Source: a virus
Direction: 5' to 3' (one strand)
UHGV virus genome: UHGV-0093339
DNA length: 31,149 nucleotides
The translations under genes were made by a program, and so were the position numbers. Numbering within the stretch: position 1 is the first letter of the stretch; each line of letters opens with the position of its first letter. The notes under the pieces are model-generated. The model did not search any database, was not told the origin of the DNA, and saw nothing but the letters and a program-made list of their open reading frames with translations. Of the stretch, positions 294 to 25,275 are shown piece by piece.

Positions 294-337
294 TTGATTT
301 TAATGTTTCTTCGCGCTTATCATTACCTTTACGGTAA
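294..337 (+). promoter_or_regulatory. candidate promoter (TTGATT -35 at 294-299, TATCAT-like -10 about 318-323) with overlapping dyad TTACCTTTACGGTAA at 323-337
   Basis: Sigma70-like hexamers with about 18-nt spacer read by eye; perfect TTACC-N5-GGTAA dyad immediately downstream of the -10. Confidence 0.35.
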
Positions 338-430
338 ATTTACATCGCACTCCTCTTGTGCCATAGTAATCGGGCACTGGCAAAATCCAGTGCCGGGATT
401 GGCGTCCCGGATTACTACAGAGGCACATAT

Positions 431-451
431 GCCGCATAAGCGGTTTTTTTA
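431..451 (+). terminator. putative intrinsic terminator in the antirepressor leader
   Basis: Short GC stem (ccgc/gcgg, loop ataa) followed by a run of seven T; preceded by nested dyad symmetry at 365-416. Confidence 0.4.
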
Positions 452-603
452 TGTGTAAAGCGCACCTATTCTATGGTGGGCTGTGTGGGGGCACCGAAAG
501 GTGCGCCGGGTCCTTTGTAGCCGGTTACGCCAACCCTGCACAGTTCACCACCAACCGATTGGCGTCGGTAGTGGTGATTAACCTAACTACAAAGGTGATC
601 ACT

Positions 604-16761: not shown

Positions 16762-16776
16762 TTACCTTTCAGGTAA
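16762..16776. promoter_or_regulatory. operator-like dyad TTACCTTTCAGGTAA upstream of the head operon
   Basis: Perfect TTACC-N5-GGTAA; a TTGACA hexamer on the plus strand lies at 16740-16745. Confidence 0.4.
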
Positions 16777-17098: not shown

Positions 17099-17175
17099 GT
17101 GGCATTAGCTCAGTTGGACAGAGCAACCGCCTTCTAAGCGGTTGGTCGCAGGTTCGAATCCTGCATGCCACGCCA
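17099..17175 (+). tRNA. tRNA-Arg (anticodon TCT)
   Basis: Cloverleaf folded by hand: 7-bp acceptor stem gtggcat/atgccac, D-arm gctc-agttggaca-gagc, anticodon stem accgc/gcggt with loop cttctaa (anticodon TCT at 17133-17135), T-arm gcagg-ttcgaat-cctgc, discriminator G and encoded CCA. Confidence 0.85.
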
Positions 17176-24572: not shown

Positions 24573-24635
24573 TCACCCATAAGGTAACAAAAATCAAGGA
24601 TAGTTACCCATGGGGTGCATTTACCTGTTGGGTAA
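24573..24635. promoter_or_regulatory. OR-like operator cluster, three dyads between the divergent Cro-like and CI-like genes
   Basis: Sites at 24573-24587 (tCACC-cataa-GGTAA), 24604-24618 (TTACC-catgg-GGTgc) and 24621-24635 (TTACC-tgttg-GGTAA); a leftward TTGATT -35 candidate at 24597-24592. Confidence 0.6.
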
Positions 24636-24690: not shown

Positions 24691-25275
24691 ATGAAAAGTA
24701 TCCAGGACGTCCGCAGGCAAAATCTCAACGACTTGATCGACCGTGAATTCAATGGTGTTCAGACGCGGATGGCAGAAAAACTTGGAACTCAGGCAAATCT
24801 GGTAAACCGCTGGGCTCTTGGCAAGAAGGTTATCGGCGACCAGGTTGCGCGAAAAATTGAAGCTGCCGCCAATAAACCCCGTAACTGGCTTGATATCGAT
24901 CGCTCGCTTTCTCAGGAAGGTTTTCAGCCTGTCGGACCAAGCGACATTGGTCAACTGGCGGCTCACAACCTGGAACGCTGGATGAGCGAAAGCCGCGACC
25001 TTTCAACACAGGGAAAACTTCACCGCGCATCCGGCGTCGCCCAGGTGACAATCAGCCGCCTGTTAAACAATGAGGTCAGCGTTTCCATTTCCACCCTGGA
25101 GAATGTTGCATCCGCATTCGGGCGTCACGGCTATGAATTACTGATTCACCCGCACGACCCTGCGACCATCAACTATGACCGCTCGCGCTACGCATTGTTA
25201 CCCGAAACCGAGAAAGCAAAGATCGAAAGTTACATTGAATTTGTCATCAACCAGAACGAAAAAAACAAACAATAA
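24691..25275 (+). CDS. CI-like prophage repressor with two HTH domains and no peptidase domain
   Basis: ORF-track; two XRE-type HTH-like segments (QTRMAEKLGTQANLVNRWALGKK and LHRASGVAQVTISRLLNNEVSVS); no Ser/Lys autocleavage module seen; flanked by operator clusters and followed by a terminator. Confidence 0.6.
   Translation: MKSIQDVRRQNLNDLIDREFNGVQTRMAEKLGTQANLVNRWALGKKVIGDQVARKIEAAANKPRNWLDIDRSLSQEGFQPVGPSDIGQLAAHNLERWMSESRDLSTQGKLHRASGVAQVTISRLLNNEVSVSISTLENVASAFGRHGYELLIHPHDPATINYDRSRYALLPETEKAKIESYIEFVINQNEKNKQ

Follow-up and report, generated by a model that had tools for sequence, protein, structure and literature searches.

The hairpins that lie 5' of the antirepressor gene (ant) in the window, i.e. 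the whole 31,149-nucleotide stretch of virus genome UHGV-0093339 that was analyzed, are the small RNA IsrK and the C4 antisense RNA, a pair already known from P1, P7 and Gifsy-1. With a probability of roughly 0.85, the locus represents a secondary-immunity module of the immI type, carried by an E. coli prophage similar to phiV10 and epsilon15 and homologous to the c4-icd-ant region of P1 and P7 and to isrK-STnc1160-anrP of Gifsy-1. An Rfam scan places two curated families within positions 294-603, isrK and C4 antisense RNA, each matched over its full length and above its threshold (Table 1). This family membership, the complementarities between the RNAs and their targets, and the three-way co-variation of the pairing sites were all obtained here and form the basis of the assignment. 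As the hairpins are a well-known small RNA pair that holds an antirepressor off, the finding is real yet ordinary; it is already known, and the picture drawn for P1, P7 and Gifsy-1 is unaltered by the present data.

Table 1. Elements of the isrK-C4-ant region and associated sites in the window
Element	Position	Strand	Basis and remarks
Operator-type palindrome TTACCTTAAAGGTAA	230-244	.	Separates isrK-C4-ant from a gene in divergent orientation on the minus strand (start 209)
Predicted upstream promoter-like site	294-323	+	TTGATT (294-299), 18-nt spacer, TATCAT (318-323); 9/12 match
Operator palindrome TTACCTTTACGGTAA	323-337	.	Between the -10 of the upstream promoter-like site and the -35 of the predicted isrK promoter
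Predicted isrK promoter	339-367	+	TTTACA (339-344), 17-nt spacer, (TG)CATAGT (362-367); consensus match; predicted +1 at about G374
IsrK (a1b1 element of the c4 system)	374-450	+	Rfam RF01394, 76.8 bits (GA 50), model positions 1-77 of 77
a1 TTGGCGT, loop of IsrK stem-loop 2	399-405	+	Complementary to a' of C4; perfect in 71/72 loci
b1 CTACAGAGG	414-422	+	Complementary to the b' loop of C4, 9 bp including one G-U
C4 antisense RNA	469-555	+	Rfam RF01695, 79.5 bits (GA 45), model positions 1-87 of 87
b' CCTTTGTAG, loop of C4 hairpin 2	512-520	+	Complementary to b1 and b2
a' ACGCCAA, single-stranded junction/internal loop of C4	527-533	+	Complementary to a1 and a2
a2 TTGGCGT, downstream target of a'	559-565	+	7-nt exact complement; at least 7 nt Watson-Crick in 72/72 loci
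b2 CTACAAAGG, target of b'	587-595	+	9-nt exact complement; overlaps the ant Shine-Dalgarno sequence (AAGGTGA); ends 8 nt before ATG 604
ant, BRO-N family antirepressor, 228 aa	604-1290	+	Pfam Bro-N 5e-20; PHROG 130 'anti-repressor Ant' 5e-56; RefSeq start 604
Candidate trans factor, HTH (Cro/C1-type) repressor gene	24691-25275	+	Flanked by operators at 24621, 25333 and 25395

IsrK, its predicted promoters and operator

IsrK is built from stem-loop 1 (374-393), stem-loop 2 (394-409) and a terminator hairpin (431-450), and its fold has a z-score of -2.5. The c4-a1b1 model (RF03163) also matches at 361-413 with 45.1 bits against a GA of 46.7 (E = 7e-10), the corresponding scores being 51.0 bits for P1 and 48.1 bits for Gifsy-1; conversely, the a1b1 region of P1 matches the isrK model with 35 bits. 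Both stem-loops had been described in an earlier note on positions 294-603, and they appear in the minimum free energy (MFE) fold and in the Rfam isrK consensus, stem 1 showing in addition compensatory changes in 4 of its 7 pairs among 27 homologues. The hairpin and T-run at 431-450, which the same note had pointed out, is the isrK terminator, recovered by a terminator scan (match at 431-444 plus the T-run). The note had correctly recognized a discrete small RNA 5' of the antirepressor gene with an intrinsic terminator of its own, confirmed by Rfam and the terminator scan, and with a promoter and an operator, which are predicted from sequence motifs; the predicted length of IsrK is 77 nt and not the ~120 nt that had been proposed. 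On inspection of homologues, the outer dyad (364-377/404-417) showed no convincing compensation; its 5' arm precedes the +1 of isrK.

Two predicted promoters precede IsrK; they and the terminator were called here as consensus matches only, and promoter-like sites within positions 1-1500 are not enriched over shuffled sequence (3 versus 2.1 +/- 1.6). The upstream site, on which the earlier note had settled, does exist; its -10 adjoins the operator, and its -35/-10 pattern is kept in phiV10-like loci. However, the predicted promoter that fits the 5' end of IsrK is the downstream one, whose -10 keeps a constant distance to isrK although the sequence ahead of it comes in 68 versions among the related loci, and whose spacing is the same in Gifsy-1. 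The P1 GenBank record likewise has tandem c4 promoters, 40 nt apart as compared to 44 nt here; the upstream site is the positional analogue of P2c4/P51a and the downstream one the analogue of P1c4/P51b, with whose -10 its own -10 aligns through the c4-a1b1 model.

The dyad between the two promoters, previously proposed to be an operator, proves to be one of eight exact TTACC-N5-GGTAA palindromes in the whole window, where 0.01 would be expected; the palindrome at 230-244 is another. In related loci the half-sites at 323-337 are conserved and the central five nucleotides vary. The promoter-like sites, together with an operator type that is repeated eight times and also found beside the HTH repressor gene, are compatible with control of the C4 promoter by the main repressor, and we infer that the HTH protein may be the factor that acts at the TTACC-N5-GGTAA operators.

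C4 and the co-variation of its pairing sites

The strongest element of the interval is C4 (87 nt; fold z = -3.6 to -4.3), which the earlier note, while right about most of the features that it listed, had overlooked together with its two targets and its pairing with the ribosome binding site. By analogy to the mature ends given in the P1 GenBank record, the mature RNA is predicted to extend from about 475 to 552/553 (~78 nt). It has a tRNA-like acceptor end, with U-1/G+1 and ...A-CCA past the stem, and the base 3' of CACCACC is an A in 67 of the 72 loci. In P1/P7, C4 is an RNase P substrate, a result attributed to Hartmann 1995 where PMC11143913 cites that work. In the homologue alignment, the long closing stem around the two hairpins is 99-100% paired with 4-5 compensatory pairs, and in hairpin 1 all pairs (5/5) are compensatory. 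Taken over the entire intramolecular structure, 95.9% of cells are paired with 16 compensatory pairs, a result equaled by none of 500 shuffles and contrasting with 34-42% for slid controls.

IsrK/C4 elements are carried by 72 distinct related loci from IMG/VR. These were gathered by a pattern that fixes loop 1 and stem 2 of IsrK, so enterobacterial relatives are over-represented, many of them related by descent. The loci contain 23 different b' loops and 4 a' heptamers; every b' loop has a b1 and a b2 of its own that fit it, and one locus is a mismatched chimera. The mean cognate complementarity is 8.4 nt for b'-b1, 8.9 nt for b'-b2, and 7.0 nt for both a'-a1 and a'-a2, whereas non-cognate combinations average 4.4-6.2 nt. 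As the MAFFT alignment misplaced some of the a2 sites and the variable b regions, b'-b1/b2 and a'-a2 were judged alignment-free by this comparison of cognate with non-cognate partners, and counting in the alignment was limited to the a1-a' helix, which is 100% paired, 2 of its positions showing compensatory changes (27 homologues). The b1:b' duplex has a calculated energy of -12.7 kcal/mol. Positions 557-566, which include a2, directly repeat the 10 nt at 397-406 in the loop region of IsrK. Among the 72 loci, b2 ends 7-11 nt upstream of the ATG in 64 and extends over it in 5. Separately, 30 inverted-repeat pairs occur within 1.6 kb, and the one at 410-428/1308-1326 (79% complementary) was taken as chance.

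Comparison with known systems

The arrangement is not an orphan; it is homologous to both the P1/P7 immI c4 module and the Gifsy-1 isrK-STnc1160-anrP region. A blastn search gave no match to P1, nucleotide identity being too low; P1 was therefore compared through the Rfam models, and its architecture was taken from the GenBank annotation. That record lists Oc4, P2c4, P1c4, a1, b1, c4, a2, b2, icd and ant, an order that matches the present one, as does, roughly, the spacing. The present locus and P1/P7 immI agree in their layout: a putative operator of the main repressor next to two predicted promoters in tandem is followed by a1 within the loop of a hairpin, by b1, by a second hairpin ending in a T-run, by C4, and by the a2/b2 sites ahead of a regulated reading frame, the regulated output being an antirepressor. 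The C4 fold is identical, with b' in the loop of hairpin 2 and a' in the junction, and the spacings agree: 7-8 nt between a1 and b1, 21-22 nt between a2 and b2, and 5-6 nt between b' and a'. One difference concerns icd, which in P1 lies between C4 and ant, whereas here the ant ATG follows 8 nt past b2 with no intervening reading frame. In P1, ant is repressed indirectly through a block of icd translation and Rho termination; as icd is absent here and b2 coincides with the Shine-Dalgarno region of ant itself, repression can be direct. As regards icd, the present locus is a c4-type module and not a P1-type operon. Further differences are that the operator, for what appears to be an HTH repressor, is a 15-bp palindrome located between both promoters, whereas P1 has an asymmetric 17-bp C1 operator over the upstream -35; that Ant is a BRO-N protein, unlike in P1; and that the module resides in an integrated prophage of the podovirus type, as compared to the plasmid prophage P1.

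In Gifsy-1, isrK, C4, a2 and b2 are arranged equally, immediately 5' of the ATG of the antirepressor-like anrP, and the a' type (ACGCCAA) is identical. As is proposed for the present locus, short and read-through isoforms arise there from one promoter and IsrK pairs with the C4 region, a pairing demonstrated by compensatory mutagenesis of IsrK G28/G31 versus C162/C159 (PMC4825925); anrP is activated by IsrK in trans (Hershko-Shalev et al. 2016, PMC4825925). In the model for that prophage, orf45 is translated through C4 and coupled to anrP (PMC4825925). Gifsy-1 orf45 has 45 codons and a stop that overlaps the anrP ATG, whereas the frame that opens here at ATG 473 has 15 codons and stops at 518-520 in the b' loop; across the 72 loci this frame ranges from 3 to 66 codons, and just 1 ends on the downstream ATG. 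As the frame is short and unconserved, orf45 coupling was rejected as the mechanism here, and what is published on mechanism does not carry over to this locus in full. The two loci also differ in that AnrP is unrelated in sequence to Ant, the b' specificities are unlike, and the present module adjoins tail genes, whereas that of Gifsy-1 adjoins the Q antiterminator. No isrJ downstream of ant, where Gifsy-1 has it, was detected at either Rfam threshold.

P22 sar resembles the present RNAs in being a small RNA that represses antirepressor synthesis within a secondary immunity region. It is, however, a true cis-antisense transcript off the opposite strand, whereas the RNAs described here share the strand of ant and pair via short dispersed patches. 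The earlier note was right to deny homology to sar: the two show no sequence relationship, positions 1-1500 contain no promoter-like site on the minus strand, and the conserved structures are on the plus strand. The seqA-CI RNA (seqB)-seqC system of P4 is alike in that a processed small RNA is located between upstream and downstream complementary sites in the same transcript. The analogy is that of the IsrK authors, by whose account P4 CI causes premature transcription termination of the P4 replication genes and does not block an antirepressor ribosome binding site (PMC4825925).

Proposed mechanism and alternatives

The proposed mechanism borrows RNase P processing, translational repression and activation in trans by IsrK from the work on P1 and Gifsy-1. 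Transcription would start at the predicted promoter at 339-367, and possibly at 294-323 too, gated by the prophage repressor at 323-337, and would either halt at the weak terminator, yielding the 77-nt IsrK, or continue into C4 and ant. A C4 RNA of ~78 nt would then be excised from the read-through RNA, its 5' end being formed by RNase P in P1. Pairing of its b' with b2 and of its a' with a2 in the ant leader would cover the Shine-Dalgarno sequence and block antirepressor translation, so that Ant would be kept off in the lysogen even with a leaky promoter. The ant leader also folds strongly when alone (z = -4.7), and the modeled fold may occlude the start region even without C4. IsrK, whose a1 and b1 copy the target sites and are spaced for a near-continuous duplex with C4, would most likely rival the leader for C4, either as part of the precursor (in cis) or as a separate short RNA (in trans), and this competition would fix the threshold of ant expression.

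How IsrK acts on C4 is a matter on which we infer, tentatively and at somewhat less than even odds, that it serves as a dedicated, higher-affinity decoy (an anti-antisense RNA) for its linked C4, with the level of ant set by the IsrK:C4 ratio, specificity lying at three co-evolving places, and orf45 coupling a lineage-specific add-on. The 8-nt a1-b1 spacing of IsrK mirrors the 6 nt between b' and a' of C4, making possible a near-continuous duplex of ~50 nt with a calculated energy of -55.6 kcal/mol, as compared to -37.2 kcal/mol for C4 with the leader, where the true target sites are 21 nt apart. If the decoy reading is true, antirepressor expression would be set by the extent of read-through at the IsrK terminator. 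A simple decoy does not predict that in Gifsy-1 the cis pairing of IsrK with C4 (structure A) is translationally inactive (PMC4825925).

A second possibility, which we regard as unlikely but deserving of weight, is an autoregulation like that of P4 CI, in which C4 pairs with the nascent a1/b1, promotes termination at 431-450 and thereby limits its own synthesis and that of ant, with no decoy in trans. Hershko-Shalev et al. raised the analogy to seqA/CI/seqC for Gifsy-1 (PMC4825925), and the layout agrees with it: b1 ends 8 nt ahead of the terminator stem, G422-G423-C424-A425 can, judged by eye, pair with U430-G431-C432-C433, which would rival the terminator as long as b1 is free, and a helix around the terminator (423-429/450-456) co-varies. 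However, co-expression of STnc1160, the C4 region of Gifsy-1, enhanced IsrK toxicity and gave no relief (PMC4825925), and such autoregulation is compatible with the decoy model and not exclusive of it. Distinctly less probable is that IsrK is mainly an Hfq-dependent RNA that acts in trans on host mRNAs and is unrelated to C4 or ant; Rfam does label the isrK family an Hfq-binding RNA and the 3' end of IsrK is U-rich, as is typical of Hfq clients, but its two single-stranded patches follow the loops of the linked C4 through 23 specificity types, which is unexpected under selection against fixed host targets.

The earlier note had offered a choice between a small RNA and a transcription-attenuation leader, and had called two hairpins (374-394 and 393-410) mutually exclusive; in an attenuator these would decide whether the terminator at 431-451 forms. 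The region is both at once, a small RNA gene and a leader, because read-through of the terminator is the likely source of ant mRNA, as was found experimentally for the Gifsy-1 homologue, in which a fraction of isrK transcripts reads through (PMC4825925). The terminator indeed stands between the predicted promoters and ant, such that transcription of ant from these promoters needs read-through. The attenuator logic itself is very improbable and was rejected: the hairpins lie side by side with no more than one base (C393) in common, both form together in the Rfam consensus as well as in the MFE and centroid folds and hence are not mutually exclusive, neither overlaps the terminator stem, and both are retained together in all 72 homologues. 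Finally, the proposal that 451-603 is coding, with an ATG at 451 opening a 279-aa reading frame in the frame of ant and the 'C4' region being an N-terminal extension of the antirepressor, can be practically dismissed although the frame is open throughout 451-1290, as RefSeq starts ant at 604, behind a good Shine-Dalgarno sequence, the C4 model is matched over its full length within 451-603 and base changes there are compensatory, the C4-internal frame from ATG 473 (a frame other than that of 451) is so variable in length among homologues that it gives no sign of conserved coding, the 451 frame of phiV10, judged by eye, meets a stop codon within C4, and no Pfam or PHROG domain begins ahead of residue 1 of the 604 form.

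Distribution and significance

The module is common: among 5,426 complete E. coli genomes, 958 contain related sequence, and so do 235 phage records, many of them from Stx-converting phages. E. coli ML35 and 118UI match the window with 100% identity over positions 200-1400. The locus needs annotation, as neither IsrK nor C4 is marked in the RefSeq record of E. coli ML35 or the GenBank record of phiV10. For researchers working on IsrK and C4, the three-way co-variation over 23 specificity types may be of use, as may the observations that orf45 is unconserved and that IsrK mimics the target of C4 in a colinear arrangement. In the prophages that carry it, the module probably sets a second threshold for induction and cross-immunity between co-resident prophages.

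IsrK and C4 RNAs precede the antirepressor gene

An E. coli prophage of the phiV10/epsilon15-like kind (Uetakevirus-type) has its edge at the left end of the window. Positions 200-1400 show 100% identity with E. coli ML35, 118UI and other strains, and 91-96% identity with TL-2011b, phiV10 and related phages. A comparison of the whole window with Rfam at curated thresholds yielded three matches: isrK, C4 antisense RNA and a distant tRNA-Arg. The isrK and C4 RNAs, which are unannotated in RefSeq and in the phiV10 record, precede the antirepressor gene ant (table). C4 forms the strongest structure in the interval (folding z = -3.6, and -4.3 for its predicted mature form). Of 5,426 complete E. coli genomes, 958 carry related sequence, as do 235 phage records, many Stx phages among these.

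Features of the isrK-C4-ant module and operator-type sites (window positions)
Feature	Position	Strand	Description
Candidate isrK promoter	339-344, 362-367	+	TTTACA-17-CATAGT with upstream TG; puts +1 at G374, the isrK model start
c4-a1b1, RF03163	361-413		'a1/b1 targets of C4 antisense RNA'; 45.1 bits (GA 46.7), permissive threshold
isrK, RF01394	374-450	+	76.8 bits (GA 50), full length
a1	399-405	+	loop of IsrK stem-loop 2; exact complement of a'
b1	414-422	+	CTACAGAGG in IsrK; 9 bp with b', one G-U included
C4 antisense RNA, RF01695	469-555	+	79.5 bits (GA 45), full length
b'	512-520	+	CCTTTGTAG, loop of C4 hairpin 2
a'	527-533	+	ACGCCAA, single-stranded junction of C4
a2	559-565	+	TTGGCGT, exact complement of a'
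b2	587-595	+	CTACAAAGG, exact complement of b'; overlaps ant Shine-Dalgarno, ends 8 nt before ATG
ant (BRO-N protein)	604 (ATG)-1290	+	PHROG 130 'anti-repressor Ant'; start agrees with RefSeq
TTACC-N5-GGTAA	230, 323, 1357, 16762, 19963, 24621, 25333, 25395		eight exact sites; 0.01 expected in window

The earlier note had described this region as a structured leader or small RNA. Its hairpins at 374-393 and 394-409 are two of the three IsrK stem-loops (Rfam match and fold), and its hairpin with a T-run at 431-450 is the third (Rfam match and terminator scan). The first two had been read as mutually exclusive, but they are neighbours that share at most C393, and both are present in the MFE and centroid folds; the C4 RNA was absent from the description. 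By the tests of both families the element is C4 and isrK, and the target-site architecture that defines immI of P1/P7 is present. Moreover, c4 and isrK have been noted together upstream of BRO-N genes in APSE phages (PMC7313666), a 2010 catalogue already includes the a1b1 motif (PMC2864571), and the analogy with P4 seqA/CI/seqC was drawn by the IsrK authors (PMC4825925). The note was therefore a true sighting of real structure, partly misread, that belongs to an already known system.

Two further observations concern the prophage itself. The window departs from ML35 left of approximately position 52, being identical from there up to 5400, and a minus-strand gene (30-209, start 209; PHROG 6762) encodes 59 aa as compared to 242 aa in ML35, so that the prophage appears truncated at its left end in the source genome, right beside the isrK-C4-ant module. 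The tRNA-Arg (anticodon TCT, 17099-17175) lies within the prophage and adjoins the operator copy at 16762; Gifsy-1 likewise has a tRNA-Arg close to its isrK locus.

The pairing scheme is shared with P1 and Gifsy-1 and covaries

IsrK and the ant leader each contain sites complementary to C4, and a 10-mer, GATTGGCGTC, is directly repeated at 397-406 and 557-566. Judged by sequence, this is the a1/b1 - a'/b' - a2/b2 arrangement annotated in P1, whose GenBank record lists Oc4, P2c4, P1c4, a 'putative a1 target site', a 'putative b1 target site', c4, a2, b2, icd and ant1/ant2 in that order. The a1-b1, b'-a' and a2-b2 spacings are 7, 5 and 22 nt in P1 and 8, 6 and 21 nt in the window, respectively. 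The P1 a1b1 segment also scores against isrK (35 bits, E = 7e-6), which indicates that IsrK and 'c4-a1b1' are one element under two names. Gifsy-1, where IsrK was characterised, contains, in this order, isrK, a full C4 match, GATTGGCGTC and, immediately 5' of the anrP start, a b2 site (ATCACCG), so that 'orf45/STnc1160' of the Gifsy-1 paper is the C4 homologue. The only features that the element lacks are icd, specific to P1, and the orf45 feature, specific to Gifsy-1.

Related loci were collected from IMG/VR with a search pattern in which IsrK loop 1 and stem 2 alone were fixed. The 120 stretches obtained comprise 72 distinct sequences from isrK to the ATG, one of which is that of the window. 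These loci contain 23 different b' loops in 27 combinations with four a' heptamers (ACGCCAA, AGACCAA, ATGCCAA and AGGCTAA). Complementarity was measured as the longest contiguous run of Watson-Crick and G-U pairs between each C4 loop and the sites. Cognate means were 8.4 (b'-b1), 8.9 (b'-b2), 7.0 (a'-a1) and 7.0 nt (a'-a2), as compared to 4.4, 6.2, 4.6 and 4.7 nt against sites of loci with different loops, and a' pairs with a2 over at least 7 Watson-Crick nt in 72/72 loci. In an alignment of 27 sequences, pairing reached 95.9% for the intramolecular structures together with a1-a', and 16 pairs had changed on both sides; slid controls were 34-42% paired, and 0 of 500 shuffles were as good, a control that overstates significance because the sequences share descent. 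IsrK stem 2 and loop 1 are uninformative for covariation, as the search pattern set them. The stronger evidence is the contrast between cognate and non-cognate sites, together with the many independent loop types.

Two other complementarities involve IsrK. A 7-bp helix (GCACATA/TATGTGT, 423-429/450-456) encloses its terminator; across 27 homologues 91.9% of it is paired, and two positions show compensatory changes. Because it uses sequence past the T-run, the helix is formable only in read-through RNA, where it may contribute to arranging the precursor for processing. The b1 region (410-428) is 79% complementary to 1308-1326, just past the ant stop codon, which is probably chance, given that 1.6 kb yielded 30 inverted-repeat pairs, this one included; an isrJ homologue was not detected there, downstream of ant.

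Candidate promoters and operators

The -10-like hexamer of the candidate isrK promoter recurs at a fixed distance before isrK in 68 different upstream contexts. It aligns, via the c4-a1b1 model, with the -10 of P1c4 (P51b) in P1, and the -10-to-isrK spacing is equal in Gifsy-1. The promoter proposed earlier at 294-323 does match the consensus at 9/12 positions, but matches of such quality are not enriched in the region; it is the positional counterpart of the second, upstream c4 promoter of P1, the two -10 boxes being 44 nt apart in the window and 40 nt in P1. Its -35 hexamer falls in the 3' arm of a dyad at 278-299, AATCAACC-N6-GGTTGATT followed by TTTTAAT, which has a terminator-like score on the + strand, has no + strand gene upstream and is kept only in a subset of phiV10-like loci.

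The dyad reported at 323-337 is real and far above chance, being one of the eight TTACC-N5-GGTAA copies. Together, these palindromes are probably the operators at which the prophage's main repressor binds, a counterpart of the C1 operators dispersed through P1. Three bracket a Cro/C1-type HTH gene (24691-25275), whose product is thus likely the repressor, and three others surround the ant unit. The 323-337 site follows the -10 of the upstream promoter and precedes the -35 of the downstream one, so that a single bound repressor dimer could silence both predicted promoters. Beyond the ant stop codon are a hairpin, GGCACAGGGATGTGCC (1299-1314), followed by TTTAAAA, and an operator copy (1357-1371) directly 5' of a strong Shine-Dalgarno and a 55-aa ORF (1384-1551, PHROG 8607), which looks like a separate small gene under repressor control. 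In six loci (L017, L022, L028, L030, L110 and L111), the terminator-to-C4 gap is 65 nt as compared to 22-28 nt elsewhere, and the extra sequence contains a near-consensus -10, GGTATAATCC; here C4 may have its own promoter, independent of terminator read-through.

Probable action of C4 and possible role of IsrK

It is established for P1/P7 that a C1-controlled promoter drives joint transcription of c4 and ant, that C4 is excised and receives its 5' end from RNase P, and that C4 blocks expression of the downstream genes when it pairs with the a2/b2 sites around the ribosome-binding site (Citron and Schuster 1990, summarised in PMC8198154 and PMC12197685; Hartmann 1995, cited in PMC11143913). The sequence requirements of this mechanism are all present in the window, the tRNA-like acceptor end included: U474/G475 aligns with the mature P1 C4 5' end, A550-C551-C552-A553 comes after the stem, and the A after CACCACC is kept in 67/72 loci. 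With no icd, and with b2 placed on the ant Shine-Dalgarno, C4 could repress ant directly by occluding its start. The leader alone (556-620) folds unusually well (z = -4.66); the conserved GGUGGUGA (570-577) pairs with the Shine-Dalgarno-to-AUG spacer, so that b2 keeps its 5' part in a loop. This predicted fold suggests that b' first makes contact loop to loop and that the basal state is 'off', which the translationally silent long isoform of Gifsy-1 would fit. A second complement of GGUGGUGA is the 3' strand of the C4 stem (545-551), so GGUGGUGA could switch partners before and after C4 excision.

The coupling step through Gifsy-1 orf45 is inapplicable here, as the frame from ATG 473 ends after 15 codons within the b' loop; such frames span 3-66 codons in the 72 loci, and only one of them ends on the downstream ATG. 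In Gifsy-1, compensatory mutations (G28/C162, G31/C159) showed that the middle part of IsrK pairs with the C4 region, and short IsrK in trans raised anrP translation >100-fold (PMC4825925). The duplex predicted for IsrK:C4 is nearly colinear and stronger (-55.6 kcal/mol) than the two-site C4:leader duplex (-37.2 kcal/mol), which, with the Gifsy-1 data, favours IsrK as a competitor for C4, a reading to which we assign a probability of roughly 0.4-0.5. Alternatively, as in P4, C4 bound to nascent a1/b1 would promote termination at 450, and this could coexist with competition by IsrK.

The genes downstream of the loci have 33 different N-termini, and similarity between AnrP of Gifsy-1 and Ant of the window was undetectable; the RNA cassette thus is a portable regulator set before diverse antirepressor genes. 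An IsrK-side shortfall was found in two loci. L027 has a b'-b1 match of only 5 nt with a'-a1 intact at 7 nt, and L083 is a natural chimera, with a crossover within the terminator, that joins an IsrK of another specificity type (a1 TTGGTCT, b1 CTACAAAGG) to a C4 (a' ACGCCAA, b' CCGTTTAG) that still fits its own leader. L083 would serve as a natural test case for the contribution of IsrK.
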